A stretch of DNA of 64,000 nt from Minisyncoccota bacterium (GTDB taxonomy: Bacteria > Patescibacteriota > Minisyncoccia > Phycocordibacterales > UBA9973), in NCBI GenBank assembly GCA_031413715.1, contig JANOFO010000009.1, positions 2,718 through 66,717 of the forward strand, read 5' to 3'. The notes under the pieces were generated by a model. It searched no databases and had not been told where the DNA came from. It saw only the letters and a program-made list of their open reading frames with translations. Below, one piece after another: positions 1 through 33,998 of the stretch. A program made the translations under genes and the position numbers. The first letter of the stretch is position 1. Every line of letters starts with the position of its first letter.

Positions 1-1
1 T

Positions 2-238
2 TCTGGACTTACGGGATTTACCCGAGCAGCGGCATATGCTACTGTCTGCTCTCTTGCCTCGGGAACAAATGCTATTGTCGGGCTTACCTCAACTGCGGCG
101 AATATTTTAAATTCCGGTGGAGCGCCCGTTTCTGGCGGACATGCCGAAATTATCGTCAATGCCGCTATTAGCTCTACGACTCCTGCTCATAACGACTATA
201 CAGATGAGATTTTTTTTGTCGCAACGGGGACATTCTAA
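2..238 (+). CDS. C-terminal fragment (5'-truncated by window edge) of a Thr/Ala-rich secreted surface protein, paralog of 388..1608
   Basis: Frame-2 open reading from the window start to TAA at 236-238. Its C-terminus ...TTPAHNDYTDEIFFVATGTF aligns with the C-terminus ...QPAHSDYTDALTFIGTGTF of the next gene. Confidence 0.6.
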   Translation, partial: SGLTGFTRAAAYATVCSLASGTNAIVGLTSTAANILNSGGAPVSGGHAEIIVNAAISSTTPAHNDYTDEIFFVATGTF

Positions 239-387
239 TTTATTAAATTTTTTATAAAGTTATAAAAGTTATCCACAGAACTTTTTACGTCTATTTATAT
301 ATCTTTATATGTGCTAAAATGGGGCTATAAGTAAATATTATTAATCGAAATCTAATTAATAATCAATCTGTTAAAGCAGTTTGTCTT

Positions 388-1608
388 ATGAAAATATTTA
401 AATTCAAAAAATCTATGTTGTCGAAGCTCGCAAGTTCTACTATAATAACAGCTTTGATTTTGCTTACCTCATTTGGTCCACAGCTTGCAGAAGCTCTTGC
501 TATTACAGCATCAAAAGACACAGCAACAAGGCTCCAGATTAGCACTGCTGCCGACCATGTTATAAGTTTCACACTGCCGACTGGCATAGATCTGGATGTG
601 ACTACCCAGCATGATGGATTCCACTTTGATTTTCCTGCATCATTTACTTCAGCTGGTACATGGGCCAATGCTGACTTCGCTTTTACGGACAGCAACGGTT
701 CTCACACCATTGAAGGTACAACTCAAGGCGCCGGTACTATTACTTGTACCTCTACAACAGCGCAAAATGTTTGTGTTGCTGTTGATACCACCAACAATAT
801 CTTTACCGTTAAGCCCTCGACAACCTACACTGCTTCTTCCACAGCATCAGCTATTACATTTACAATCTTAGGTACAGGTGCGGGCGGTACGCTTACCAAT
901 CCCGCTTCAGTAGCTGCGACTAACATTGATTTCCAGATGTGTGATGAGACAGCTTCTTGCTTCACATCTTTTACCATATCCCACTCTAGCCAGATTGCCT
1001 ACGCTGTCATTGATGACGATGCAGTAGCAATAACCGCGACGGTCAATTCATCAATTACTTTTGATTTAGATACTGCGGGAAGCAATGATAGTACGTGTGA
1101 TACAGATGAAACTGCGGCACCGTATATAATAGCTCTAGGCTCGATTACAACTACTGATACAAGAGTCTCTGGTGCAACTGATACTATCAATTTAATCTGT
1201 GTTGATCTTGACACCAATGCCTCCGGTGGAGCAGTGATTACTATCGCAAATGCCAATGGAACAAACGGCCTTGCGTCTACATCAGTTCCAGCTGATGACA
1301 TAGACAGTGTTACTGGTAGCGTGGCAGACAACACAGAGAATTATGGTGTATGCATTGTTACCAGTACAGCTACAACAGGTACTCTAGACGATGAAGGATT
1401 ATACGACGGTGATACTTGCGCGGCAAACTCCGAAACTAATAATGTTAAAACACTGTCTGCCACAGCAGGCAATATCTTCGATACCAATGGCGCTCCGATT
1501 GCCGGTGGTCGCGGAACGATATCCGTGCAAGCTTCAATTACTGGAGTTCAGCCTGCTCATAGCGACTACACTGATGCCCTCACCTTTATAGGAACGGGCA
1601 CATTCTAG
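388..1608 (+). CDS. Secreted Thr/Ala/Ser-rich beta-rich surface protein (signal peptide ...LAEA; conserved C-terminal DYT..TF motif)
   Basis: 406-aa ORF. N-terminal hydrophobic signal sequence, T/S/A-rich low-complexity body. C-terminal motif shared with 2..238, 24712..25353 and 26365..27141. Confidence 0.7.
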   Translation: MKIFKFKKSMLSKLASSTIITALILLTSFGPQLAEALAITASKDTATRLQISTAADHVISFTLPTGIDLDVTTQHDGFHFDFPASFTSAGTWANADFAFTDSNGSHTIEGTTQGAGTITCTSTTAQNVCVAVDTTNNIFTVKPSTTYTASSTASAITFTILGTGAGGTLTNPASVAATNIDFQMCDETASCFTSFTISHSSQIAYAVIDDDAVAITATVNSSITFDLDTAGSNDSTCDTDETAAPYIIALGSITTTDTRVSGATDTINLICVDLDTNASGGAVITIANANGTNGLASTSVPADDIDSVTGSVADNTENYGVCIVTSTATTGTLDDEGLYDGDTCAANSETNNVKTLSATAGNIFDTNGAPIAGGRGTISVQASITGVQPAHSDYTDALTFIGTGTF

Positions 1609-1627
1609 ATAAGCAAATTTCCTAGCA

Positions 1628-2656
1628 ATGCATAACTACTCAAAAAAAAAGAGATATCTGGTGTTCTTGACTATCGTCATGATGAGTGCGCTCTTTGTTC
1701 CACATCACTCAGATGCCCTTGGCCTATCTCCTGTTCGTATTGAGATTAGCGGTAACCCTGGCGAGACTGTTGCCAATGAAATGCTCCTTACTAACGAAAC
1801 TAAAAAAGAAGAAACATACTATTCTTCATACGCTAATTTTGAAGCCCAGGGTGAAACAGGCAACCCATCCCTTGTGGTACCCAAAGACGGTCTCGGTACA
1901 TGGATGAAAACCGAGGCGAGCATTACACTTGGGCCAAATACTTCCCAAGTAGTAAAGGTTTCTATCAAGATTCCGCGTGATGCAGAGCCGGGAGGACACT
2001 TCGGCGCGATAATGTGGGGCACAACGCCAAATACACCTGGAAACGGAGTTGCCATCGGCGCCAAAACGGCGATGCTCGTCCTCTTGTCTGTTACCGGAGA
2101 TGTTCAAGAAAATGGCGGACTCATAGAGTTTTCAACAAAAAATCATAAAATTTGGTACAACACCTTGCCTGTTTCATTTGTCTATCGGTTTAGAAATGAT
2201 GGAGGAGACCGTATCAAGCCGGTTGGTAAAATTACAATGCATAACATTATTTATCTTCCTGCTGATCGTATCGATGCCAATCCGAGCGCTGGCAATATAT
2301 TGCCGGGTACAACGCGTCGTTTTGAAGTTGATTGGCATAAATACAAACATGCTCTAGAGTATGCTGCGCCTGCAGGCATCTTTGCTCAATTCTTTGATTC
2401 GGCGCTATATCAATGGAAAAACTTTGCCATCGGTCCATACTTTGCCAAGCTCAATCTTCTTTACGGTACTGATGCTATTCGTGTCAGTAAGTATGCTTTC
2501 TTTTTTGTATTTCCATGGCAGTTAATCATCTGTCTCGTTCTTATCATAATGACCCTATGGTTGGGTGGGAAAAAACTAATCAAACGATATAACAGGTACA
2601 TAATCAAGAAGGCACGTGCTGGTATGAATATGCCAAACGATGCCTCTCATGTATAG
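1628..2656 (+). CDS. Membrane-anchored extracytoplasmic protein (signal peptide, C-terminal TM plus K/R tail), DAEPxGxxGA-motif family; architecture reminiscent of DUF916/DUF3324 cell-surface proteins
   Basis: 342-aa ORF. Clear paralog of 25384..26355 (shared DAEPGGHFGAIMW / DAEPRGYYGALIV, NDGGDRIKPVGKITMHN / NTGNVHLVPYGEVTIKN). C-terminal hydrophobic helix followed by KRYNRY. Confidence 0.65.
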   Translation: MHNYSKKKRYLVFLTIVMMSALFVPHHSDALGLSPVRIEISGNPGETVANEMLLTNETKKEETYYSSYANFEAQGETGNPSLVVPKDGLGTWMKTEASITLGPNTSQVVKVSIKIPRDAEPGGHFGAIMWGTTPNTPGNGVAIGAKTAMLVLLSVTGDVQENGGLIEFSTKNHKIWYNTLPVSFVYRFRNDGGDRIKPVGKITMHNIIYLPADRIDANPSAGNILPGTTRRFEVDWHKYKHALEYAAPAGIFAQFFDSALYQWKNFAIGPYFAKLNLLYGTDAIRVSKYAFFFVFPWQLIICLVLIIMTLWLGGKKLIKRYNRYIIKKARAGMNMPNDASHV

Positions 2657-3560
2657 TATAAAATACATAACTAAATGGTTTATTATTGCATCGACGGTGC
2701 TTTTGGTGCCGATTCACGCTTTTGCATTTACTATCACCACTCCTCCAGAAGAAGTAGCGATATCGGCCCAAGTTATTTCAACGACTCCACCATCTCCATC
2801 TAGCAATTCAAGTGGAGGCGGGGGTTACTTTGTTAGTTCTAGCATTACATTCTCCGGCATTGCGTATCCATTTGCGCGAGTTTATATACAGCAAGATGGT
2901 CAGGCTGCTATGACTGTGACTGCTGATTTTTTCGCTCGATTCTCGGCGACTATCTATAATCTTCCAACTAACATATATAAGTTCTCCGTGTATGCAAAAG
3001 ACAGTGAAGGTAGAAAATCTGCATCGTTTGCCTTTCCACTGGCCATAACATACGGAACAACTGTAAATATTAACAATATTTACTTGTCTCCAACTATTGA
3101 TATTGATAAAAGCCACGTTGCACGGGGCGATAGCCTTATTATATTTGGTCAAAGCGCTCCCCAGGCAAGCGTAAATATTTCAGTTAACTCTAATATTCTG
3201 CATTTATATTCGGCCACGACGAACATCATTGGCCAGTATTCATACAATCTTGATACCTCGTCTCTTCTGTTTGGTCCAAATCAAACTAAGTCGAGAGCGA
3301 TGATAAACAGCCAGCTGACCTCGTTCACCCCACCGCTTACATTCATTGTGGGAGACAGAAACAAAAAAAAAGAGGTAGTTGAATGTACAACAATCGTGGC
3401 TGACCTTAACTGCGATGGGAAAGTCAGCCTGATAGATTTCTCTATTATGGCCTACTGGTATAGAAACACTAATCCTCCTTCTCGGGTTGACCTCAATAGT
3501 GACGGAGTGATATCGCTCGCGGATTTTAGCATTCTAGCATTTTACTGGACCGGATTATGA
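2640..3560 (+). CDS. Secreted protein with C-terminal type-I dockerin-like tandem repeat
   Basis: 306-aa ORF with signal peptide. C-terminus DLNCDGKVSLIDFSIMAYWY...VDLNSDGVISLADFSILAFYW gives two DxNxDGxV(S)xxD Ca-binding segments typical of dockerins. Start could be the second Met (2649). Confidence 0.65.
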   Translation: MPLMYSIKYITKWFIIASTVLLVPIHAFAFTITTPPEEVAISAQVISTTPPSPSSNSSGGGGYFVSSSITFSGIAYPFARVYIQQDGQAAMTVTADFFARFSATIYNLPTNIYKFSVYAKDSEGRKSASFAFPLAITYGTTVNINNIYLSPTIDIDKSHVARGDSLIIFGQSAPQASVNISVNSNILHLYSATTNIIGQYSYNLDTSSLLFGPNQTKSRAMINSQLTSFTPPLTFIVGDRNKKKEVVECTTIVADLNCDGKVSLIDFSIMAYWYRNTNPPSRVDLNSDGVISLADFSILAFYWTGL

Positions 3561-4474
3561 AACATACGATTTTAAAAAAATCTATAGTAATTATGTGTAG
3601 TCTAGTTTTGTTTCTAGCTTGTACTACTTATGTACTGGCATCAGAACTATTCTTTACTCCTTCCGCAAAAATGATAGGGCTCGGCGAAGAATTTTATGTT
3701 GATCTAATGCTTGATCCGGAAAATACCTCTGTAAACGGAATTGAGTCTACTATCGTATTTCCTCCCGACAAGATTTCTTTCGTTAGAAGCGAAGAAGGTA
3801 AATCAATGGTTGATCTGTGGATTGAAAAAACGAAAGAAAAGGCCGGAGTAATTGCTTTTTCAGGCATAATTTCGGGCGGTTTTTCCGGCGTTATAGACCC
3901 ATTCTATTCCGATATAAAATCGCCAGGATTGTTAGTTCGCTTAGTATTTAGAGGAGAGAGGCCGGGAGATGCAACAATCGAAAGCATTTCTTCGCATGTA
4001 GCCCACAATGATGGGGAAGGTACCACAGAGACCATTCTTCCACAAAGTGTTTTAGTTTCCGTAGAAAATAAAACTGCTTCCGATTCATATAAAAATATAG
4101 ACGAAACAAAGCCCGAACTTGTGGTATATGTAATCCGTGATCAGAATATTTTTAATAACAAATACACGCTTGTGATACAAGCGAACGATAAAGAGTCTGG
4201 AATTCGAGATATAATGGTTAAAGAAGGGGGTAGAGATTGGCAGATAGCCGAGAGTCCATATCTCCTTGAAGATCAGGACCGAGGCAGTACAATTACTATT
4301 CGCGCTACTAATCACACTGAACTTAGCGCTACAATGACGATTGATCCTACGGCACGCAACTTTTCTGAAGGATCTAATGCAGTTCTACTTATAATCTTTA
4401 GTATATTATTACTGATTACTTTACGGGGAATATATTCACGTAGGAGAAAAAGCCGCGAGTCTCGAGATATATGA
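3557..4474 (+). CDS. Cohesin-like domain protein with C-terminal membrane anchor
   Basis: 305-aa ORF. Signal peptide, cohesin-like beta-sandwich stretch (YVDLMLDPENTSVNGIESTIVFPPDKISFVRSEEG), C-terminal TM (AVLLIIFSILLLITL) plus RRRK tail. 4-nt ATGA overlap with the upstream gene. Confidence 0.5.
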   Translation: MKHTILKKSIVIMCSLVLFLACTTYVLASELFFTPSAKMIGLGEEFYVDLMLDPENTSVNGIESTIVFPPDKISFVRSEEGKSMVDLWIEKTKEKAGVIAFSGIISGGFSGVIDPFYSDIKSPGLLVRLVFRGERPGDATIESISSHVAHNDGEGTTETILPQSVLVSVENKTASDSYKNIDETKPELVVYVIRDQNIFNNKYTLVIQANDKESGIRDIMVKEGGRDWQIAESPYLLEDQDRGSTITIRATNHTELSATMTIDPTARNFSEGSNAVLLIIFSILLLITLRGIYSRRRKSRESRDI

Positions 4475-5208
4475 AGATCAATCATCTTAAAATAACTTTA
4501 TATAGCTTTGCAATTCTCGGAATATTTTTGATATCTGCGCCTTCTTTTGCTGTTACTGCAATCAATTTTGACGGTCCGTCGCTATTGCCCACTGCTCGAA
4601 TTTTTATAAAGCCGAGCTCTGGTAATTATACAGCAGGTTCTACATTTGAAGCCCCGATTTACATAGATACAGAGAATAATAATATCAACGCTATCAATAT
4701 AAAACTGCGCTTTGACTCATCTAAACTTAAGGTTGTAAAATCTTCAAGCGGTGATTCAATCTTTGGTATATGGATAGAGAGTCCAAATTATGACAATGTG
4801 AAAGGTACGGCAAGCCTGGTGGGTGTGATACCAAATGGTATCGTCACATCATCCGGACTTATTGCGACGATTACCTTCAAAGCGCTTACAACAGGGCATG
4901 CCAATGTGATGCTTACTGACTATTCGAGCGCTAATCTCAATGATGGATATGGTACAGAAGTGAAATTAATTGAAAGTGGAGCATCGTATAATTTTACACC
5001 AGCAACCCCCAATTCGATCGTGGAGACACCTAAAGATACTTTCCCTAAACCAATTATTATCTATATTCATGATAAACAAGAGTCCTTTTTCCTATCTATA
5101 TATGCTGATCTATTTCTAAAATACAATTTTCCGATTCTTCTGCTCCTGTTACTACTTTTACTCCTTCTAGAAGAGAGGCGAAAAAAGGGAAAAACCCTTA
5201 ATAACTAA
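4471..5208 (+). CDS. Cohesin-like domain protein with C-terminal poly-Leu membrane anchor
   Basis: 245-aa ORF. Signal peptide, cohesin-like region (NAINIKLRFDSSKLKVVKSSSGDSIFGIW...ATITFKALTTGHANVMLTD), C-terminal ILLLLLLLLLLLEERRKKGK. 4-nt overlap with the upstream gene. Confidence 0.55.
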   Translation: MKINHLKITLYSFAILGIFLISAPSFAVTAINFDGPSLLPTARIFIKPSSGNYTAGSTFEAPIYIDTENNNINAINIKLRFDSSKLKVVKSSSGDSIFGIWIESPNYDNVKGTASLVGVIPNGIVTSSGLIATITFKALTTGHANVMLTDYSSANLNDGYGTEVKLIESGASYNFTPATPNSIVETPKDTFPKPIIIYIHDKQESFFLSIYADLFLKYNFPILLLLLLLLLLLEERRKKGKTLNN

Positions 5209-5295
5209 AGCTATTAACCCTTTCTTTTTAAGCTCATTTTTGCTATACTGTGAGAGTATTTCACCCGTCTAAAAGGGCGATTTTTCAATAACAAA

Positions 5296-8590: not shown

Positions 8591-9592
8591 ATGAACATAC
8601 TCCTTGCTATTGTTTGCATTTTATTCTCAGCGTTGTTCGCAGGATTGACCCTCGGACTGATGGGCCTCGATCTATCTACGCTTAGGCGCAAGATGAAACA
8701 TGGAGATCGTGATGCTGCTCGTGTTTACCATATTCGCGAGAATGGAATGTTCCTCCTGACTACGCTTCTATTGGGAAATGCTGCCGCATCGGCGTTCTTC
8801 TCGATACTTGTTGGAGATATTGTAAATAATTATTGGGCTGGAATCATCGCCACTGCCGCTCTTTTTATTGTCGGTGAAATACTACCACAAGCCATTGTCT
8901 CTCGATTTGCCCTTTCTTTTGGCGCTCATACAGCTCCGCTGATTCGCTTTATTATGATAATTTTCTCACCGATCTGCTACCCGATAGCATGGATACTCAA
9001 TAAAATTCTAGGCAAAGAAACTCCGACAAGTTATACCAAGCGCGACCTGCTCTCTATCATCGAAGATGATAAGACGACCCCTGATGGAGATGTCGATCAT
9101 GATGAACGACGAATTGCCAAAGGCGCCTTCTCATTCTCGCATCGCCTTGTAGAACATGTCATGACGCCGAATACAGTAGTCAAGCTCGTTCATGCAGAAG
9201 ATATTATTGATGAAGCATATTTGGCTGATCTGAAGGATTCCGGTTACTCCCGGCTTCCAGTCGGTACCAATGACCCGAATCAATTTGTGGGTATTTTGTA
9301 TTTGAAGGATCTTCTCGGCATTGTGATTCCGAAAAAAGTAAGAGACGTAATGGATTCTACTATTCATTTCGTAAATACTTCGGATCCTCTTGATACGGTC
9401 CTTGATCAATTTATTAAAACCAAAATGCATCTCTTTGTAGTTCTCGATGAGTTCGGAGGATTCGAAGGAGTGATTACGGTAGAAGACGTGATCGAAGAGA
9501 TCATCGGTGCTGAAATAATGGATGAAGATGATGTAACCCCCGATCTTCGTCAAGAAGCCATGCTTCATAGAATTCGTAGAAGGGTAGAGTAA
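8591..9592 (+). CDS. CNNM/CorC-HlyC family transporter (DUF21 membrane domain plus CBS pair)
   Basis: 333 aa. N-terminal multi-TM DUF21-like region (LLGNAAASAFFSIL), then CBS-like region. Confidence 0.8.
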   Translation: MNILLAIVCILFSALFAGLTLGLMGLDLSTLRRKMKHGDRDAARVYHIRENGMFLLTTLLLGNAAASAFFSILVGDIVNNYWAGIIATAALFIVGEILPQAIVSRFALSFGAHTAPLIRFIMIIFSPICYPIAWILNKILGKETPTSYTKRDLLSIIEDDKTTPDGDVDHDERRIAKGAFSFSHRLVEHVMTPNTVVKLVHAEDIIDEAYLADLKDSGYSRLPVGTNDPNQFVGILYLKDLLGIVIPKKVRDVMDSTIHFVNTSDPLDTVLDQFIKTKMHLFVVLDEFGGFEGVITVEDVIEEIIGAEIMDEDDVTPDLRQEAMLHRIRRRVE

Positions 9593-25383: not shown

Positions 25384-26355
25384 GTGAAGCAATCATTCCG
25401 AAATAAAACAGTCTTTTATATATTTCTTATTCTTGTCTTTTTTTCATCAGGGAGTGTTTTTGCATATCAAAAAAGTAAGATTGATATAACTCCGCAAAAT
25501 GACTTTGTGGTAGAACCGGGAAAAACTGAGATCTTTCTCAATCCAGGGGAGTCAACTGTCAAGAATATCACTATTACGAATAGAATTGATAGGAATGTTA
25601 ATTTCAAACTAACAACTGAAGACATAATCGGAACAGATAATCCTCTTGAACAGATTGTGCTTCTTGGCGATGAAGCGAGCCCGTATTCACTGAAAGACTT
25701 AATTAAGCCTGAAATCAATGAATTCTCGCTTGCACTTGGGGAAAAAATAGTAATACCTGTTAGCATTTCAGTTCCTGTTGATGCAGAGCCACGCGGGTAC
25801 TATGGAGCTCTTATTGTTTCTAACGATCCCGAAAAGGTAGCGACTAGTAATACAACAGAAGCAGAGAGTAAAACTCGTATAGTTTCACGAATAGGCTCTT
25901 TATTCCTAGTTAAAATAAATGGACAAGGAAAGGAAGAAGGCGCCCTTGATAGCTTTGGCCTAATAGGCCCTAAAAAGTCTTTTTATGAAAAGAGGCCAAC
26001 AGGATTTTCAATTGGATTTAAAAATACTGGAAATGTCCACTTAGTACCGTACGGAGAAGTGACTATTAAGAACATGCTTGGTAGGACTGTTGGCCAGATT
26101 CCTGTCGATGCTTATTTTGCTCTTCCAGATTCTATACGTTATCGAGAAGTTGTTTGGACTGAAGGCTTCGGGCTTGGTCACTACACTGCGCACCTATCTT
26201 TATATAAAGGATACGGCAATGAATATGATGAATCAAAAATCGGCTTTTGGGTACTGCCATGGAAAGTACTCCTCTCAATCTTGGGAGTCCTAGTGGTTCT
26301 TGTTTCACTTATATACTATATTTCTACTCGATTTGAACTAAGAAAGAAGAAGTAA
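25384..26355 (+). CDS. Membrane-anchored extracytoplasmic protein, DAEPxGxxGA family (paralog of 1628..2656)
   Basis: 323 aa. Signal peptide, DAEPRGYYGALIV, C-terminal TM plus RKKK. Confidence 0.65.
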   Translation: MKQSFRNKTVFYIFLILVFFSSGSVFAYQKSKIDITPQNDFVVEPGKTEIFLNPGESTVKNITITNRIDRNVNFKLTTEDIIGTDNPLEQIVLLGDEASPYSLKDLIKPEINEFSLALGEKIVIPVSISVPVDAEPRGYYGALIVSNDPEKVATSNTTEAESKTRIVSRIGSLFLVKINGQGKEEGALDSFGLIGPKKSFYEKRPTGFSIGFKNTGNVHLVPYGEVTIKNMLGRTVGQIPVDAYFALPDSIRYREVVWTEGFGLGHYTAHLSLYKGYGNEYDESKIGFWVLPWKVLLSILGVLVVLVSLIYYISTRFELRKKK

Positions 26356-26364
26356 AATTGTTAT

Positions 26365-27141
26365 ATGAAAGCATTACACTCTTTTATAAAAAGTAGAAAT
26401 GCTAGATTTATCTGTTTTGTGATTATTATCCTGATTTCTATACCTTCAAGGAGCATTTTAGCAGAAATGATGCAAAGTACCGGTTATAAAATCGAATCTG
26501 ACAGCATCAATATTGAAGGGAAAAATTCGTCAAGCACAAGTTATATTCTCGATGATACAGCGGGTGAGCTTAGTACTGGAGATTCAAATAGCACTAATTT
26601 TTATATGCATGCAGGCTTTTGGCAGATGCAGGAAAGTTATATTTCTATTTCTACTCCTTCTGATCTTGCCCTTACCTCTATACAAGGTTTGTCTGGAGGT
26701 GCTACGGAGGGTACGCTAGACTGGCTTGTGAAGACTGACAATGTCGCGGGATACACTATGACCATAGCTTCCTCTACAACTCCATCCCTTCAATCTGGCT
26801 CGGATTCATTTGCTGACTATGCCCCAAGCGGTGGTAACCCTGACTATACATTTACTAATACTGCCGCTAATTCGTCATTTGGGTTTTCTCCAGAAGGTAC
26901 TGAAGTTACACAGAGATATAAAGATAATGGCTCAATATGCAATACGGGTTCATCAGAGGCATCAGGTAAGTGCTGGGATGGACTTTCGACTACTCCGAAA
27001 ACTATAGCAGGTAGTACAACGAGCAATCACACTGCCGGAAATACTACTACGGTTAGATTCCGGGCTGAATCAGGTGCAAGTCATATTCAAACTTCTGGAG
27101 ATTACACGGTATCAATCATAATAACTGCTATGACATTATGA
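26365..27141 (+). CDS. Secreted Thr/Ser-rich surface protein (same family)
   Basis: 258 aa. Signal peptide, C-terminal GDYTVSIIITAMTL. Confidence 0.6.
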   Translation: MKALHSFIKSRNARFICFVIIILISIPSRSILAEMMQSTGYKIESDSINIEGKNSSSTSYILDDTAGELSTGDSNSTNFYMHAGFWQMQESYISISTPSDLALTSIQGLSGGATEGTLDWLVKTDNVAGYTMTIASSTTPSLQSGSDSFADYAPSGGNPDYTFTNTAANSSFGFSPEGTEVTQRYKDNGSICNTGSSEASGKCWDGLSTTPKTIAGSTTSNHTAGNTTTVRFRAESGASHIQTSGDYTVSIIITAMTL

Positions 27142-28202
27142 TTAAATCATCCCGCACTCTAATTTTACTTGGATTTTTTCTGTCCCTCACTTTTTCTACA
27201 TTCATTGGAAAAATTCAAGCTGGAACCGATGGAATAAATGTAAAACTCGGTGTTAATGGATGTGATAATAACGGAATATGCGAAGCAAGCAATGGTGAGG
27301 ATGTCAATAGTTGTCCGAATGATTGCACAGTAATTCCATTAGGTACTGGAAGTGGAAGCGGTGGGGGAGGAACATTTTCTATTAATTCTAGTAATTTTCA
27401 CGATCTAGTAATAGATGTTAGTTTAACTGATGCGACTATAGAGTGGAAGACTGCAATGCCCACTCTTACTGTTCTAAAGTGGGGAGAGAGTACTGATTAC
27501 GTGAGTGGCACTATCGGAGGCTACTTTTTTTTCAGGGATCATAAAGCTGAACTTATTAATTTGAAAAGCAATACTCGGTATTATTTCTCTATCAGTGGTC
27601 AGAATATTTATGGCACAATAATACAACCATACGTTGGTACATTTGTGACATCCACACCTCCAGACACAACACCTCCTAGTAAACCAAAAATCACAAACAA
27701 GATTATAAGTGCAGATGCAATCAAGCTAACATGGATCAATCCCTCCGATATAGATTTTGATTATGTTCGTTTGATGCGCAGTGAAAAATCCTTCCCAAAA
27801 ACTCCATTCACTGGCAAACTCATCTATGAGAATAAGAGGCAATATTTCACAGATCTAAATGTAACTCCGGTGAAAAAATATTATTATTCGCTTTTTGCCC
27901 GTGATAAAACTGGCAACTTTTCTTTAGGTGCAGAAGTATTTGCCCAGATGGAAATTAAGATAGTCACATGCGATCTTGATCCGTCACTATGTGCAGATAT
28001 TCCTTCTCTCTCACCACAAACCGATAATAGAAATATACCCATTACATTTCCTACCTTAAAATCATATTCCTACATAACAGTGCCTTCTACTATGACAGCT
28101 TCTCTGTCAATGCTAGAAATCAAGATAAACTCTTTTAAGATTAAAATAAAGGGGATTATTTCAACCCTCCAATCATTTTTTATAAATAAGCTTAATTTTT
28201 AA
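27138..28202 (+). CDS. Secreted Cys-rich / fibronectin type III-like domain protein with hydrophobic C-terminus
   Basis: 354 aa. Signal peptide, CDNNGICEASNGEDVNSCPNDC, FN3-like PPSKPKITNKIISADAIKLTWINP. 4-nt overlap with the upstream gene. Confidence 0.55.
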   Translation: MIKSSRTLILLGFFLSLTFSTFIGKIQAGTDGINVKLGVNGCDNNGICEASNGEDVNSCPNDCTVIPLGTGSGSGGGGTFSINSSNFHDLVIDVSLTDATIEWKTAMPTLTVLKWGESTDYVSGTIGGYFFFRDHKAELINLKSNTRYYFSISGQNIYGTIIQPYVGTFVTSTPPDTTPPSKPKITNKIISADAIKLTWINPSDIDFDYVRLMRSEKSFPKTPFTGKLIYENKRQYFTDLNVTPVKKYYYSLFARDKTGNFSLGAEVFAQMEIKIVTCDLDPSLCADIPSLSPQTDNRNIPITFPTLKSYSYITVPSTMTASLSMLEIKINSFKIKIKGIISTLQSFFINKLNF

Positions 28203-28347: not shown

Positions 28348-28716
28348 ATGAACTTATTAAAAAAAGTCGTTCCACTAAGCCAAGCAGCAAAACTCTCCGG
28401 CTACAACCAAGACTACTTGGGCTATTTAATCCGTGTAGGAGAAATTAAGGGGCAAAAAGTCGGCCGGGGATGGGTTACAACTGAAGAAGAAATAAAAAAT
28501 TATCTTTTAAAGCAGAAGATTCGTCAAAAAAAATTAGCACTCTTGGACTTCTTTACCCGAGAGCGTAATAAAAAGATTATCCTAACCACCATCATATTGT
28601 TTGTAGTCAGTTTTTCGACGTGGTTTTATATTCTAGATCATAAGAATTTTCATGCAACTGGTGTCCAATCTTCACTTACTTCTGAATCTGAAAAATTACA
28701 GGAAAAGGAAAATTAA
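28348..28716 (+). CDS. Small membrane protein with N-terminal excisionase-type helix-turn-helix-like segment
   Basis: 122 aa. LSQAAKLSGYNQDYLGYLIRVGEIKGQKVGRGWVTTEEEIKNYL resembles Xis/MerR-type HTH. One TM helix. Confidence 0.5.
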   Translation: MNLLKKVVPLSQAAKLSGYNQDYLGYLIRVGEIKGQKVGRGWVTTEEEIKNYLLKQKIRQKKLALLDFFTRERNKKIILTTIILFVVSFSTWFYILDHKNFHATGVQSSLTSESEKLQEKEN

Positions 28717-28721
28717 AAAAT

Positions 28722-31700
28722 ATGTATTCATTCGAAAAAACAAACAGAAAATTAAGAAACAAATCAAATACTGCGCTCGCAGTTTTATTGGTTGCTCTGT
28801 CACTTTTTCAGTTTCCATTCATCGGTAGAGCGGCATTTAACAAACAAATAAATTATCAAGGCAAGCTCACCAACGCGTCTGGAGTTGCAGTTGCAAATGG
28901 GGACTACAATATGGAATTCAAGTTAATGACAGTCTCAAGCGGTGGTGACACTACGCAAGGTTCGTGTACTACTAGTTGTGCATGGATGGAAACAAGAACT
29001 GGCGGAAGCAAGGTAACTGTGACGAACGGCCTCTTTAGTGTTCTCCTTGGTGAAGTTACTTCACTCTCTGGAGTTGATTTTAACCAGACCTTATATTTGT
29101 CAGTTCAGATCGGCAATACAGGAAGTCCATCATGGGATGGAGAAATGACTCCACGAAAAAAATTGGGAGCAGTTCCTGCAGCAGTTGAATCAGAGCGAGT
29201 CGGAGGATTTACTCCAGCCCAATCTGCAACAGGCAATCAAGTTCCGGTGCTTACATCTGGAAATTTAATTCTTGGCGGAACAAATCCAACATTCGGCGGA
29301 ACGGGATCAAATACATTGACGCTTCATAATGGCGCAACAGGAGATATTCAATTTTTCGGTTCATCAAATAAGATTACTTCCGGAGGCGCGCTTACAGTTA
29401 CGGGTGTTGTAAATGCTGCAGGATTGACTTCTTCTGGAGCAATTACATTTTCATCACTTGGCACCGGTATTGCTCATCTATCTTCGGGGGGCGTGCTCTC
29501 ATCGTCAGCTATTGATCTGGCAACTGCTGATGTCACGGGAATTTTGACAACAGCAAAAGGTGGAACAGGCATTGGAACACTTGCCTCCAATGCAGTACTC
29601 TATGGTAATGGTACCGGAGCCATTCAAGCCTTGGCTGTAAACTCAGGTGCAACCCTGTGTCTTACTCAAGCAAGTAGTGGTGCACCGGCATGGGGATCAT
29701 GTGGTGCAGGAGGCTCTACCAACTGGGATACCATAGGTGATGCAGGAGGGAATGGCGCCATTGCTATGGGTACCACGGAGCAGACTATGGATTGGGATTT
29801 CACTACGACTGATCACGATGGACTTACCTTTAATTTTGATAACAATGGAGGAACAGCAGGGACCGACCATGGAATTGTTATCAATAACGCACTCTCAACA
29901 AATGCATCTGGAGATCTTGATACAGAAAATTTATTACTGATTCAACAACTCGATACGACTGCTTCTGGCGTAACTGATATTGATAATCTTCTTAAGATAG
30001 ATATCGCAGCAAACTCAGGTGCAACTGATGGCATCGAAATTACAAATTCTGGAGGAAACATCACTGGCAGTGGACTTAATATTGTCGACACAGGAGGCGG
30101 TACCTTTACAACAGGCATCACGCTTGCGGGAACGTTTACTACTGGAATAGATATGGGAGCGAGTACATTAATTAATATTGGAAACGCTGCCACTGATTTT
30201 AATTCGAGCGGTGGACTAACACTTGCGAGTGACCTCGTACTCAATGCCCAAGCAGATGTCCGGTTTGCAGATGCGGATAGTTCTCATTATGTTGGATTCC
30301 AAGCACCATCAAGTATCAGTTCGAGCTTTACATGGACACTGCCATCTACTGACGCAACAGGGTGTCTAAAATCGAATGGTTCAGGAACACTTTCTTTTGA
30401 TGGTGCCTGTGGAGAAACTGACTATGAAACATTTACAGGAAATGGAACTTTTACTAAAAAATCAAATGCCCTTTTAGTTGTTGTCGAAGCATGGGGTCCT
30501 GGTGGTGGCGGTGCAGGAGGAGGTAGTGTTGCTGCTGGTACCGCTACTACAGGTGGTGGAGGTGGTGGAGGAGGCGCATATACAACTCGATCGATTGCTG
30601 CAGGATCTGTCGGAGCGACTGAAACGGTGACCGTTCCTGCTGGCGGTACGGCTGGAACCGGTGGTACAAATGCTGTCGGTACAGATGGTTCTGCTCCGAC
30701 AGCTGATACAAGTTTTGGATCACTCCTCATTGCATATAGAGGAGGAGGTTCTGGAAATGGAAACAACTCTGCTACTGGCGGCGGAGGCGGCGGAGGCGGC
30801 GGATCAGCAGGTGCAGGAACAAGCTCGACGAACCAAACAGGAGGAGCTGGTGGTACATGTGCTGGTGGTGTAACCGTTGGTGCTGGAGCAAACGCTTTTG
30901 GTAGCTGTGGCGGCGGCGGAGGAACAACAACTTCAGGTAATGCGAATGAAGGAGGAGGCGGTGGTGGAGGACTTGCTGCCGGAGGAACTGCAGGACGATC
31001 GGGAGGTACATCCCTCAAGGGAGGCGGCGGAGGCGGTGGAGGAGCAAGTCTTGCAGCAACTCATGCTTCGACTGCCGGAGGTCCAGGAGGTGCAAGTGGT
31101 GCTGCGATGCAGGCAGCAGGAACCGGCGGAGGTGTTGCCGGAGGTGCTGCTGGAACAAATAATGGAACTGCCGGCCAAGATGCAACTTCTTCAACTGGTT
31201 CGCAGATTGGAGGTGGTGGAGGAGGCGGTGGAGGAGGCAGTCAGGCTACAGCTGGATCAAACGGCGGAGCCGGGGCAGTCGGAGGTATTCCTGGAGGAGG
31301 TGGTGGAGGAGGCGGAGCAGGAACGCATAACGGTTCGACAGGAAGTGGCGGAGCCGGAGGAGCCGGCGCACGTGGAGAAATTCGTGTTTGGACCTATCGT
31401 GGCACAGGAGCCGATTTGGCGGAAGTTTACGGAACAAATGACTCAACCCTTGAAGCCGGAGATGTCGTATCTCTTGATCATGACATGCAAGCGGGAGTTA
31501 AAAAAAGCAGCAAAGCATATGATGCTGAGGTAATGGGTATTGTTTCAACAAAACCTGGCATGATTATCGGTAATATTGAAGATGCTGGCGCCATTCCAGT
31601 CCTTCTCGCACTCTCTGGTCGTGTTCCCGTAAAAGTAAATATGGAAAATGGCGCGATTAAAAAAGGCGACCTCCTTACCCCTTCATCCATTCCTGGTGTT

Positions 31701-32990
31701 GCAATGCGAGCGACAAAAGCAGGTAGTATTATCGGACAGTCAATGACAGAGTATATTGACCCTGATGCGCCAGGGTATGTGGTAGTTTTTATTAAGAATA
31801 GTCATACGACGGGAGCAAAACTTTCTGATCTTTTTGCAGGAGAACTTGAGATGATAGGAGGGGAGATAGATAAAGGAGTGGAATTAAATCCATCAGAATT
31901 AATAAAAGGAACCAAAACGCTCCAACAGCGTGCACTTGCTTATTTTAATACTAATAAATTGACTCTCTCAGAGTCTCTCAATCTTTCGGAAGTGACTGCC
32001 GATAGAGTTACTGCAGGACTTGAAATTATAACGCCGACACTCTTTGTAGGAACTGTTTCAACCGATTCTATAACTCCTCTAAATGGAACTTCTCTTGATA
32101 TACTGCTTTCGAATGAAGGTACATTCAACATTAAGAACCAATTGTTGACAGAAGGAGCCGGATCAGCCGAACCTATTGTCAGTATTGATAATTTAGGGAA
32201 CGCGACATTTGCGGGTAATCTAAAAGTAAAAAGTATCAAAGCAGATTCGATCGAAGGTCTCGATTCTTTACTCATGACTAATGCCCATTTAGCCTGGGAT
32301 TCTTTCACAACAAAAACCCTGACTGTATCCGAGAACGCAATCTTTAGTGGAGAATCAAGGTTTGATGGCCTCACATTCTTTAGTATGGCTGCGAACTTTG
32401 ATTCCAGTGTGACATTTAATGCACAATCGGAATTTATTCTTCCACCACTCTTCAATAGTGATACAGCTGGCTTTGCTATAATAAAAAAGGGGAGTCGCAG
32501 AGTTCAAATAATTTTTGAGACGCCTTATATAGTTGAGCCTGTTGTAACCACATCGCTTGTATTTAGCACTGCGGATAAAGTGACTGATTCTGGAGCAGAT
32601 GAGATATTTACTGCAAGCGTTCAGTCTCTTGTCATCGATAGTGATCAAAATGGATTTACTATTTTTTTGAACAAAAACGCGCCACAAGATCTAAGATTCA
32701 CTTGGAATGCGCTTTCTGTCCGCGATCCGAAAATTTTTGAAAGTGTTATCGAAGGTCTCACCATTGAAAATTTACCACTAGACCTACTTCCGCCAGATCC
32801 TTTACCTGATCCAATTCCAGAACCCGACCCAGTCCCTGATCCAACTTCAAAAGAAGAAGATCCAGTTCTTGATCCTATTCCTGTGCTTGATCCAGAGCCT
32901 GTCCAACAAGAAGACCCAGCCCCGATACTTATAGAGATATCTGAGCCGGTAGTGGAAACAAAAGAGGAGCCCATTCCTATAGTTGAGTAA
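28722..32990 (+). CDS. Giant (1422 aa) secreted glycine-rich fibre-like surface protein with Pro/Asp-rich C-terminal tail
   Basis: Signal peptide. N-terminal YQGKLT... beta domains. About 300 aa of GGGGGGG/GAGG low-complexity repeats. C-terminal PDPLPDPIPEPDPVPDP. Confidence 0.75.
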   Translation: MYSFEKTNRKLRNKSNTALAVLLVALSLFQFPFIGRAAFNKQINYQGKLTNASGVAVANGDYNMEFKLMTVSSGGDTTQGSCTTSCAWMETRTGGSKVTVTNGLFSVLLGEVTSLSGVDFNQTLYLSVQIGNTGSPSWDGEMTPRKKLGAVPAAVESERVGGFTPAQSATGNQVPVLTSGNLILGGTNPTFGGTGSNTLTLHNGATGDIQFFGSSNKITSGGALTVTGVVNAAGLTSSGAITFSSLGTGIAHLSSGGVLSSSAIDLATADVTGILTTAKGGTGIGTLASNAVLYGNGTGAIQALAVNSGATLCLTQASSGAPAWGSCGAGGSTNWDTIGDAGGNGAIAMGTTEQTMDWDFTTTDHDGLTFNFDNNGGTAGTDHGIVINNALSTNASGDLDTENLLLIQQLDTTASGVTDIDNLLKIDIAANSGATDGIEITNSGGNITGSGLNIVDTGGGTFTTGITLAGTFTTGIDMGASTLINIGNAATDFNSSGGLTLASDLVLNAQADVRFADADSSHYVGFQAPSSISSSFTWTLPSTDATGCLKSNGSGTLSFDGACGETDYETFTGNGTFTKKSNALLVVVEAWGPGGGGAGGGSVAAGTATTGGGGGGGGAYTTRSIAAGSVGATETVTVPAGGTAGTGGTNAVGTDGSAPTADTSFGSLLIAYRGGGSGNGNNSATGGGGGGGGGSAGAGTSSTNQTGGAGGTCAGGVTVGAGANAFGSCGGGGGTTTSGNANEGGGGGGGLAAGGTAGRSGGTSLKGGGGGGGGASLAATHASTAGGPGGASGAAMQAAGTGGGVAGGAAGTNNGTAGQDATSSTGSQIGGGGGGGGGGSQATAGSNGGAGAVGGIPGGGGGGGGAGTHNGSTGSGGAGGAGARGEIRVWTYRGTGADLAEVYGTNDSTLEAGDVVSLDHDMQAGVKKSSKAYDAEVMGIVSTKPGMIIGNIEDAGAIPVLLALSGRVPVKVNMENGAIKKGDLLTPSSIPGVAMRATKAGSIIGQSMTEYIDPDAPGYVVVFIKNSHTTGAKLSDLFAGELEMIGGEIDKGVELNPSELIKGTKTLQQRALAYFNTNKLTLSESLNLSEVTADRVTAGLEIITPTLFVGTVSTDSITPLNGTSLDILLSNEGTFNIKNQLLTEGAGSAEPIVSIDNLGNATFAGNLKVKSIKADSIEGLDSLLMTNAHLAWDSFTTKTLTVSENAIFSGESRFDGLTFFSMAANFDSSVTFNAQSEFILPPLFNSDTAGFAIIKKGSRRVQIIFETPYIVEPVVTTSLVFSTADKVTDSGADEIFTASVQSLVIDSDQNGFTIFLNKNAPQDLRFTWNALSVRDPKIFESVIEGLTIENLPLDLLPPDPLPDPIPEPDPVPDPTSKEEDPVLDPIPVLDPEPVQQEDPAPILIEISEPVVETKEEPIPIVE

Positions 32991-33020: not shown

Positions 33021-33998
33021 ATGAAAATAGGCTTAAAGACAACCGCCCTCTCACTCTTCTTTCTCCTTATAGGTTTTGGAGTTGGTTTTGTTTTGGATAA
33101 AGGTACTCACTCTCGATGTAGTGCTGAAAATTTTGAACATATTAATCCTGACTTGGTTTGTAAACTGGCACCAGTGGTCAGCAAACAAGGATACAGTAAA
33201 CTCAAAGCTGATTTAGAAAAGTTTATCTCGGATAAAAAACAAGAAGGAATTGTTAGCTCAGTATCAATTTATTTTCGTGATTTACATAATGGACCTACGC
33301 TTGGTATGAATGAGTATGAAAAATTTTCTCCGGCAAGCTTATTAAAGCTCCCGCTCTTCTTAACTTACCTTAATCTTTCAGAAAATAATCCTGCATTCTT
33401 AGAAACAAAAATAGGTTTCGAAGAAAAAAATCTTACTCAAAAGCAGTACTTTCCGTCTGCGAAAATTGCCCAGAACAATACTCCCTATACTATAAATACT
33501 CTGCTTGAATATATGATAGAGTATTCTGATAATAATTCGTACTATGCCTTAAATCAATACTTGAGACAGGTCTCTCCAAATACTGATTTATTGCGAGAGA
33601 CATTCCTGGATTTAGGTATCATTGATCCACAAAACTTTGCCGATCAGACGTTGTCTGTTAAGTCGTATGGATCTATTTTTGTCCAGCTTTATCACAGTTC
33701 TTTTTTTTCTAAAAAGGAACTGTCGGAACAAGCACTTTCCTTGCTTTCTAAATCAGATTTTAAAGAAGGGATAACTCTTGGTGTGCCTACTGAACTTGAA
33801 ATAGCTCATAAATTTGGCGAACGTTCTGACTTGCCAAATAATGAAAAACAGCTGCACGATTGCGGAATTGTGTATTACCCCAAGAATCCATATCTCCTAT
33901 GTGTGATGACACGGGGGACTGACTTTAAACAACTTTCCCATATAATAGGCGAGATATCGAAAATGACATATAAAGAATTCGATTCTCGAAAAATATAG
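33021..33998 (+). CDS. Class A beta-lactamase-like / penicillin-binding-fold serine hydrolase
   Basis: 325 aa. N-terminal TM/signal. SxxK (SLLK), SDN (YSDNNS) and K(T/S)G-like (KFG) motifs in the canonical order. Confidence 0.5.
   Translation: MKIGLKTTALSLFFLLIGFGVGFVLDKGTHSRCSAENFEHINPDLVCKLAPVVSKQGYSKLKADLEKFISDKKQEGIVSSVSIYFRDLHNGPTLGMNEYEKFSPASLLKLPLFLTYLNLSENNPAFLETKIGFEEKNLTQKQYFPSAKIAQNNTPYTINTLLEYMIEYSDNNSYYALNQYLRQVSPNTDLLRETFLDLGIIDPQNFADQTLSVKSYGSIFVQLYHSSFFSKKELSEQALSLLSKSDFKEGITLGVPTELEIAHKFGERSDLPNNEKQLHDCGIVYYPKNPYLLCVMTRGTDFKQLSHIIGEISKMTYKEFDSRKI

Follow-up and report, generated by a model that had tools for sequence, protein, structure and literature searches.

How are the products of a compact run of surface-protein genes, located at the beginning of a 64,000-nucleotide stretch of contig JANOFO010000009.1 of a Minisyncoccota bacterium (the whole stretch is hereafter referred to as the window), related to one another, and what might they build together? 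The region in question (positions 1-5208) encodes two pilin-like secreted proteins (pilin0, of which the window contains the 3' end, and g1), a membrane-anchored chaperone-like protein (g2), a dockerin-bearing protein (g3) and two membrane-anchored proteins of the cohesin type (g4 and g5); it corresponds to the 3' two-thirds of an operon which is conserved and belongs to a Patescibacterium of the Paceibacteria/Parcubacteria type. The bacteria of the candidate phyla radiation (CPR)/Patescibacteria depend on physical attachment to a host, and the annotation of most of their surface proteins does not go beyond 'hypothetical'. The reading that we favour, to which we assign a probability of about 0.55, is that the operon encodes a surface filament of the Pam type, built by donor-strand assembly with the help of a chaperone, and that the dockerin of g3 would fasten this filament to the cohesins of g4 and g5. 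What speaks for it is sequence, fold and synteny, from which we infer every step of assembly and binding. The region had been singled out in an earlier reading of the bare sequence (the original prediction), some of whose claims are taken up below.

The Pam pilus is known from cryo-electron microscopy (cryo-EM) of filaments from the CPR bacterium Ca. Mycosynbacter amalyticus, which polymerise by donor-strand exchange, the donated linker of the pilins and its binding site being their most conserved regions (Troman et al., bioRxiv 10.64898/2026.03.03.709456). According to the same preprint, PamC and PamD are PapD/FimC-like chaperones, unusual in their C-terminal transmembrane (TM) helix; PamT is the tip subunit; and PamR, which resembles RbmA and combines two FnIII domains with an additional N-terminal strand and a TM helix, has been proposed to terminate and anchor the filament (10.64898/2026.03.03.709456). 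The system has neither usher nor ATPase, its pilins occur mainly in Saccharimonadia and Microgenomatia, and among the neighbours of the pam operon are a corB-like gene, which is conserved there, and a gene for a giant protein resembling tail fibres; cohesin, dockerin, WxL and Paceibacteria are not mentioned in the preprint (10.64898/2026.03.03.709456).

Organization and conservation of the operon

The conservation of gene order was analyzed in a set of 80 Patescibacteria loci, obtained with the chaperone profile from a scan in which each species was represented by one genome; their genes were called with home-built hidden Markov models (HMMs). The order pilin(s)-chaperone-dockerin protein-cohesin-cohesin, colinear and on one strand, was found in 62 of the 80 species-representative genomes, with median intergenic gaps across the loci ranging from -17 to +19 nt. 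The survey of related genomes that the original prediction had called for thus returned the same arrangement, and two of its assertions have to be abandoned: the dockerin/cohesin trio is not a separate assembly placed beside a surface-protein cassette, since it belongs to one operon of fixed order, and the arrangement is not unusual for a small-genome bacterium, being present in most of these Patescibacteria genomes.

The exceptions to the full order are mostly represented by contig ends, by frameshift splits or fusions (L036, L034) and by upstream pilins too divergent for the HMM. Two loci (L040 and L071) have one cohesin only despite sufficient room downstream, which is unexplained; the dockerin and cohesin genes are missing from L076 and L080 in spite of downstream room, and likewise from L078, where about 1.3 kb only is available downstream; in L079 the gene order is rearranged. 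Since the flanking genes (gyrB, ThrRS, MurJ) differ from genome to genome, the block is kept as a unit in different genomic contexts. All the conserved members of the operon are accounted for, and an outer-membrane usher was found neither in the operon nor in the 80 related loci.

A reciprocal sample consisted of 80 metagenome loci found through the dockerin protein, and the counts refer to the loci with enough room. At least one cohesin gene is located downstream in 66 loci out of 66 and at least two in 51 out of 51, while a recognisable chaperone gene lies directly upstream in 34 out of 49 (25 at the strict threshold). The dockerin-cohesin-cohesin triad is an invariant core, which is usually but not always joined to the pilin-chaperone pair. 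In several loci devoid of a canonical chaperone, a shorter chaperone-like gene and a gene for a secreted protein of about 170 aa, whose mature N-terminus is DTxxVSATV, are found immediately upstream, and a few of the dockerin-found loci have other neighbours altogether. Triads without recognisable pilin and chaperone genes upstream are exemplified by the metagenome loci L096, L099, L102, L112 and L120; some of these pair-less triads are located directly 3' of genes for a giant protein and a small TM protein, in which case a longer dockerin protein (413-600 aa) is often encoded. The triad may represent a general anchoring module. As a whole, the operon is widespread: the scan revealed at least 553 metagenome loci harboring it, and the chaperone and dockerin-protein families comprise, respectively, 576 and 476 cluster representatives at E <= 0.001.

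In the window, the five complete genes (Table 1) are separated by +19, -17, -4 and -4 nt, the start and stop codons overlapping at g2/g3, g3/g4 and g4/g5. A terminator-like hairpin is found at 5266-5279, 3' of g5, and gyrB begins at 5296. The series of consecutive genes for signal-peptide proteins that had been noticed originally is confirmed by the five complete forward open reading frames (ORFs) at 388-5208, each of which begins with a hydrophobic signal-like segment (Kyte-Doolittle 12-residue maximum 2.2-3.1, a hydropathy heuristic and not a SignalP call); judging from these segments, all the products of the region are secreted by a Sec-type route. A C-terminal hydrophobic segment followed by a basic tail is found in g2, g4 and g5 (Kyte-Doolittle 19-residue mean, KD19, 2.4-2.6), and no C-terminal TM segment is detected by hydropathy in g1 or g3. 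The same distribution is observed in the families to which these proteins belong, where a TM segment is present in 82/85 chaperones, 66/69 first cohesins, 48/69 second cohesins, 0/70 dockerin proteins and 1/109 pilins; this distribution fits a model in which a filament is held by membrane anchors.

Table 1. Features of the operon and of the second cassette in the window (positions in nt; aa, amino acids).
Feature	Positions	Strand	Basis or remark
pilin0, 3' end	1..238	+	paralogue of g1; full gene on contig L166:1774-2844
g1, pilin-like secreted protein, 406 aa	388..1608	+	two beta-sandwich domains (AlphaFold2 model)
g1 inter-domain linker, putative donor strand, residues 209-228, DDDAVAITATVNSSITFDLD	1012..1071	+	core VAITATV at nt 1024-1044
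g2, membrane-anchored chaperone-like protein, 342 aa	1628..2656	+	signal peptide, two Ig-like domains, TM segment, basic tail
g3, dockerin-bearing putative adaptor, 306 aa	2640..3560	+	Pfam Dockerin_1
g4, membrane-anchored divergent cohesin 1 (by homology), 305 aa	3557..4474	+	homology to g5
g5, membrane-anchored cohesin 2, 245 aa	4471..5208	+	Pfam Cohesin
cassette 2, one-domain pilin-like protein, 213 aa	24712..25353	+	N-terminal strand NVIVTLTV
cassette 2, g2 paralogue, TM-anchored and chaperone-like, 323 aa	25384..26355	+	sequence similarity to g2
cassette 2, PamT-like protein, 258 aa	26365..27141	+	NCBIfam CPR_pilus_PamT
cassette 2, 354-aa protein	27138..28202	+	N-terminal strand INVKLGV, Gly-rich linker, FnIII-like domains

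The dockerin protein and the strand motif shared with the pilins

The g3 protein matches Pfam Dockerin_1 with 28.6 bits, above the gathering score of 22.9, so that the tandem repeat, described as dockerin-like in the original prediction, falls within the dockerin family. The domain extends over residues 254-300 (nt 3399-3539) and is made up of a duplicated segment of about 22 residues in which the calcium loop DxNxDGxxxxxD occurs twice (DLNCDGKVSLID at residue 255 and DLNSDGVISLAD at residue 284); D255, N257, D259, D266, D284, D288 and D295 are invariant across 36 sequences. The possibility that the DxNxDG repeats of g3 are chance EF-hand sites was ruled out by the above-gathering Pfam score and by the obligate adjacency to two cohesins. 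No other dockerin-bearing ORF is present in the window.

The layout of the g3 family is fixed in the 36 homologues, where a signal peptide is followed by a strand of the type V-x-[IV]-S-A-x-V, a Gly-rich linker, immunoglobulin (Ig)-like domains (Big_6-like) and the dockerin; a pilin-like C-terminal domain is absent from g3. The consensus of the linker is GGGGGGG, in g3 itself shortened to SSGGGGY. The N-terminal strand of g3, VAISAQV (residues 39-45, nt 2754-2774), in which A43 and V45 are invariant across the 36 sequences, has the same alternating pattern as VAITATV in the linker between the two domains of g1. The similarity was assessed by an unbiased search, in which a 24-column HMM of the pilin linker was compared with every ORF of 100 aa or more present in 85 loci. 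Twenty-seven of the 45 best non-pilin matches belong to the dockerin family, although this family accounts for 80 of the 1734 non-pilin ORFs (Fisher p 7e-27); they are always located just past the signal peptide (median residue 36), and the remaining matches are mostly antisense ORFs of pilin genes or divergent pilins. In the same vein, the pattern V.[IV][ST]A.V is found in 53/73 dockerin proteins (within the first 80 aa) and in 65/101 pilins, and in 4/477 of the other ORFs. The presence of the putative donor-strand motif of the pilins at the N-terminus of g3 ties the dockerin-cohesin trio mechanistically to the proposed filament.

The two cohesins

The match of g5 to Pfam Cohesin (41.9 bits, gathering score 24.1) places the domain at residues 54-145, and the protein ends with a poly-Leu TM segment followed by a basic tail (KD19 2.39). 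The g4 protein shows a cohesin-like module (residues about 29-165), a second Ig-like module (about 185-260), a TM segment (275-293, KD19 2.44) and a basic tail; it has itself no Pfam match, and its relationship to g5 emerges from the comparison of the two sequences (pairwise E 4e-9) and of the two families (hhalign E 5.8e-39). Pfam Cohesin is matched by 7 of the 32 orthologues in the g4 position and by 10 of the 35 in the g5 position, and the profile of the g4 family retrieved, among the sequences of the PDB, an Ig-like chitinase domain only. On the basis of homology alone, g4 is a divergent cohesin, and the two cohesin-like proteins with C-terminal TM anchors that had been proposed to follow the dockerin protein are borne out, g5 by its Pfam score and g4 by its kinship with g5.

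The pilin-like proteins

The two copies of a protein with the C-terminal motif DYT..TF, previously recognized as tandem paralogues, are g1 and the product of the fragment at 1-238 (frame 2 of 2-238), whose sequence is 48% identical to the g1 C-terminus over 63 aa, with the common ending DYTD..F..TGTF. The complete pilin0 gene, encoding 356 aa, was retrieved from the Logan contig L166 of the same genome, which adds 2.6 kb of upstream sequence. Pilin0 and g1 have the C-terminal domain in common (45% identity over 188 aa, E 1e-41), and the N-terminal domain of pilin0 is Cys-rich and unrelated to that of g1.

Altogether, 191 homologues of g1 were found, and the flush C-terminal end ..[AG]T[GAS]TF is present in 45/45 aligned sequences. 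The AlphaFold2 (AF2) model of g1, built on the 45-sequence alignment, consists of two beta domains (predicted local distance difference test, pLDDT, 77.8), between which the pLDDT of residues 209-220 drops under 50 in the monomer. No segment of the g1 family is more conserved than this linker; it has the strand pattern VxITAxV, and its positions D211, V213, A217, V219, F225, D226 and D228 are invariant across the 45 sequences. A conserved linker that finds no place in the monomer model matches the donated linker of the published Pam pilin. Fold searches with the whole g1 model returned generic Ig-like pilins and adhesins and nothing else; the profile search of the PDB sequences with the g1 family gave nothing meaningful, the coordinates of PamA and PamB being absent from the PDB copies searched. 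Neither a Pfam match nor a Trp-x-Leu motif was found in g1, whose single Trp sits in GTWANADF. Taken together, conservation and predicted structure give g1 the appearance of a pilin with two domains and a donor strand.

The chaperone-like protein

The g2 protein contains the motif DAEPGGHFGA and a C-terminal TM segment at about residues 290-312 (nt 2495-2563, KD19 2.59). Its AF2 model (41 sequences, pLDDT 83.6) shows two beta-sandwich domains and then a long C-terminal helix (residues 297-331). The distant paralogue which had been attributed to this membrane-anchored protein is recovered at 25384-26355, with the related motif DAEPRGYYGA (25% identity, E 9e-17).

In a Foldseek search of the PDB, the top matches of g2 are the WxLIP of E. 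faecium (9i1y) and the complex of WxLIP with a long WxL protein (9i25), at E 1e-11, followed at lower ranks by the chaperone-usher chaperones CfaA, CsuC and EcpB (E 1e-9 to 1e-7) and then by RbmA. It is known that WxLIP, which is encoded in the WxL (Csc) clusters of Firmicutes, has a TM segment and two Ig-like domains, that its gene lies beside those of two secreted partners and that, according to prediction, one of its strands enters the partner protein (Hassan et al. 2023, PMC10599100). At the sequence level the resemblance is much fainter: Pfam WxLIP_PGBD is matched with 17.2 bits by g2 and 13.4 bits by the paralogue, both under the gathering score of 27.3; no DUF3324 match exists in either; the profile of the g2 family retrieved WxLIP alone, weakly (E 0.09), from the PDB sequences; and the conserved WxLIP motif NQIDKxxxYFDLK was not seen when the g2 sequence was read by eye. 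The earlier guess of a DUF916/DUF3324 protein is right at the level of fold, though not borne out at the Pfam threshold, and g2 does not have the combination of DUF916 (PGBD), DUF3324 (HBD) and TM segment that defines WxLIP, despite the strong resemblance in fold. In architecture and fold only, g2 shows the two domains of a PapD/FimC-like chaperone and the C-terminal TM helix of PamC and PamD, and on these structural grounds it is most likely a membrane-anchored chaperone of the PamC/PamD type.

Among solved structures, g2 is nearer by Foldseek to the WxLIP of Firmicutes than to the chaperones of Gram-negative bacteria; the predicted model is a hint that a single strand-complementing chaperone architecture might be common to WxL clusters, Pam systems and chaperone-usher systems. 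The named members of the g2 family are metagenome-assembled genomes of Paceibacterota, Nomurabacteria or Parcubacteria, including RAAC4_OD1_1. Many third-party annotation records of these loci are titled 'Candidatus Saccharibacteria'; the title is regarded as unreliable since the loci are 50-67% identical to those labelled as Paceibacterota.

Proposed mechanism and alternative explanations

If the operon encodes a filament of the Pam type, all its products would be exported by Sec. Pilin0 and g1 would emerge with an incomplete C-terminal Ig-like domain, and the membrane-anchored g2 would capture both of them by strand complementation. During polymerisation, the inter-domain strand D-D-D-x-V-x-[IV]-T-A-x-V of one pilin would fill the C-terminal domain of the next one. 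The strand V-x-[IV]-[ST]-A-x-V of g3, which has no acceptor domain of its own and continues after the strand with a flexible Gly-rich linker, would insert into the last pilin, capping the base of the filament, and the calcium-type dockerin would bind the cohesins of g4 and/or g5 in the cytoplasmic membrane, with the filament being attached in a non-covalent manner. The function of PamR would be split, an adaptor (g3) and two anchors (g4/g5) replacing the single membrane-anchored protein. The role of such a filament is likely the attachment to a host or to a surface, and the adhesion or host-attachment role put forward by the original prediction is plausible.

Several observations weigh against a Pam-type filament. 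At E <= 0.1, none of the 45 members of the g1 family matches the NCBIfam model CPR_Pam_pilin_C (NF058581) of the PamA/B/E pilins and none of the 41 members of the g2 family matches the NCBIfam Pam models; when the g1 family was compared by hhalign with the PamT-like family (described below with the second cassette), the signal peptide aligned and nothing further. Since there is neither a match to Pam pilins nor a relation to PamT-like proteins, the assignment of g1 as a pilin is made by architecture and context, not by homology. The best structural match of g2 is WxLIP, the partners of which are not known to polymerise. Within genomes, the covariation between the variable positions of the g3 strand and those of the pilin linker was not significant (observed 1.15, null 1.04, p 0.14), in a test with little power because the buried positions are invariant. 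Lastly, the triad occurs without a recognisable chaperone upstream in 15 of the 49 metagenome loci with room on that side, which suggests that it may anchor other cargo too.

The resemblance of g2 to WxLIP raises the question of whether the locus might encode a non-filamentous surface complex of the WxL/Csc kind, in which g2, as a WxLIP homologue, would hold single g1-type proteins by strand insertion, in the way proposed for the WxL clusters of Firmicutes, and the dockerin and cohesins would add further modules. The fold searches, with the 9i25 complex among the best matches (E 1e-11), the weak Pfam WxLIP_PGBD hits of both paralogues, the weak match among PDB sequences (E 0.09) and the logic of the cluster, with one TM-anchored two-Ig protein and two secreted partners, all agree with this idea; yet g1 has no WxL domain and no Trp-x-Leu motif, g2 lacks NQIDKxxxYFDLK, the related CPR system is a filament by cryo-EM, a PamT homologue is encoded in the second cassette, and a strand common to the g1 linker and to the g3 N-terminus would be hard to explain without donation between subunits. 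We regard such a complex as rather unlikely. It appears doubtful, too, that the triad is a membrane-anchored module for adhesion or display in its own right, sharing no more than an operon with the pilus genes and either exposing g3 through its Ig-like domains or carrying other cargo, such as a giant tail-fibre-like neighbour. Its invariance (66/66 and 51/51), compared with an upstream chaperone in 34/49 loci, the triads placed directly after genes for a giant protein and a small TM protein, and the giant surface proteins encoded upstream in L002, L004 and L166 would be well accommodated; this independence is difficult to reconcile, however, with the enrichment of the pilin linker motif in the N-terminal strand of the g3 family (p 7e-27), with the start and stop codons overlapping from g2 to g5 and with the fact that many of the chaperone-less loci keep upstream the short chaperone-like gene and the one for the DTxxVSATV protein.

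The presence of cohesin and dockerin modules might also evoke a cellulosome-like scaffold in miniature, onto which enzymes that degrade polysaccharides would be assembled. In g1-g5 the searches revealed neither a catalytic nor a carbohydrate-binding domain; g3 is the sole dockerin-bearing ORF of the window and, apart from its dockerin, consists of Ig-like domains only; with no enzymes, no carbohydrate-binding modules and no second dockerin in the window, a cellulosome is extremely improbable and this candidate was discarded.

With the Pam-type filament as the preferred reading, a more specific claim can be advanced tentatively, being somewhat doubtful as it stands: that a cohesin-dockerin pair is the membrane anchor of a donor-strand-exchange pilus, with g3 both terminating and docking the filament, that this is the first natural case found in the literature of such a pair fastening an appendage, and that Pam-type pili extend to Paceibacteria/Parcubacteria. 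Full-text literature searches returned no description of a natural cohesin-dockerin anchor of a pilus and none of this operon in CPR bacteria; one paper reports an essential dockerin-domain protein in a Saccharibacterium, which was left unexplained there. If the claim were true, a function would be assigned to six conserved hypothetical gene families of Paceibacteria, the range of the Pam pilus would be wider than Saccharimonadia and Microgenomatia, and a filament could be anchored in a modular, non-covalent manner in a cell without outer membrane or sortase; moreover, the link in fold between g2 and WxLIP would suggest that the WxL systems of Firmicutes, the Pam systems of CPR bacteria and the chaperone-usher systems of Gram-negative bacteria fall under one strand-complementing principle. 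What is new here is the previously undescribed combination of genuine cohesin and dockerin modules with a Pam-like logic and a chaperone architecture of the WxLIP/PapD kind.

The second cassette and the neighbouring genes

The g2 paralogue belongs to a second cassette of four genes (Table 1), the third of which encodes a 258-aa protein matching the NCBIfam model CPR_pilus_PamT (NF058579) with E 2e-11 and 43.6 bits, far under the equivalog cutoff of 240. The same model is matched by 83 of the 87 members of its family, and, by sequence, the protein is a homologue of PamT and not an equivalog; no PamT was found within positions 1-5208. A profile search of the PDB sequences with this family gave nothing meaningful. 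The PamT-like family comprises 717 cluster representatives at E <= 1e-3, and the PamT-like domain is often located at the C-terminus of proteins of 450-2187 aa (e.g., P0421 and P0506), an architecture that would be anticipated for a tip adhesin bearing an acceptor domain of the pilin type. The 354-aa protein that closes the cassette resembles PamR or g3 in its architecture, although a TM segment and a dockerin are both missing from it.

Both cassettes are flanked by genes for giant Gly-rich proteins resembling tail fibres, one just upstream of the window (L166:2-1351) and the other at 28722-32990. The two proteins have a C-terminal region of about 230 aa in common (47% identity), and the upstream one carries a Peptidase_S74 intramolecular-chaperone domain (28.7 bits). 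Beside each of them is encoded a small single-TM protein, of 142 aa (L166:1398-1826) and of 122 aa (28348-28716), respectively. In the 30-32 kb bin the GC content reaches 0.50, compared with about 0.40 outside it, and spurious antisense ORFs of considerable length occur on both strands at 30422-31533; both features are due to the Gly-rich (GGN) repeats of the 1422-aa protein encoded at 28722-32990, and not to separate genes. Directly after this giant gene, the ORF at 33021-33998 encodes a secreted protein similar to class-A beta-lactamases (NCBIfam bla_class_A, 63.9 bits, far under the cutoff of 200), which is probably a protein with a penicillin-binding or serine-hydrolase fold and not a resistance gene product. 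A CNNM/CBS (CorB-like) membrane protein is encoded at 8591-9592, 3.4 kb 3' of the operon.

Comparison with known systems

The locus has several features in common with the Pam pilus: Sec-exported pilin-like proteins, of two domains in the g1 model, with a conserved linker strand, a TM-anchored PapD-like chaperone, the lack of both usher and ATPase, a putative terminator with an N-terminal strand and two Ig/FnIII-like domains, the genes for a giant tail-fibre-like protein and a CorB-like protein nearby and, in the second cassette, a PamT homologue. The differences concern the anchor, since PamR is itself TM-anchored whereas a dockerin adaptor and two TM-anchored cohesins are found here, the g1 and g2 families, which have no matches to the NCBIfam Pam models, and the lineage, which is that of Paceibacteria/Parcubacteria. 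Compared with PamR, g3 has the N-terminal strand and the Ig-like domains, but it has no TM segment and ends with a dockerin. Because the pilins do not fall into the Pam pilin family by sequence and PamR is missing, the locus was not filed as an orthologous pam operon.

Like g2, WxLIP consists of two Ig-like domains between a signal peptide and a C-terminal TM helix, and it is the best fold match of g2; in the WxL clusters, unlike here, the partners carry a WxL domain or motif, an LPXTG protein is present and, as they are described in PMC10599100, there are no cohesin or dockerin genes. The chaperone-usher pili (Pap/Fim, CFA/I, Csu, Ecp) also use a two-domain Ig-like chaperone fold, a strand of alternating hydrophobic residues, which in the present locus could act as a donor, and pilins with flush, conserved C-termini. 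They differ in relying on an usher and an outer membrane, whereas the chaperone is here tethered to the membrane, and in the donor, which is an N-terminal extension in those pili and would be the inter-domain linker in g1; the anchoring would here be accomplished by cohesin and dockerin. Lastly, cellulosomal and non-cellulosomal cohesin-dockerin pairs, such as those of the anchoring scaffoldins of Clostridia, have the same duplicated calcium-loop dockerin and the same cohesin beta-sandwich on cell-bound proteins. In the operon described here, however, enzymes and carbohydrate-binding modules are absent, each cohesin is held by a single C-terminal TM helix in place of surface-layer homology (SLH) domains or sortase, and the cargo is apparently a filament subunit.

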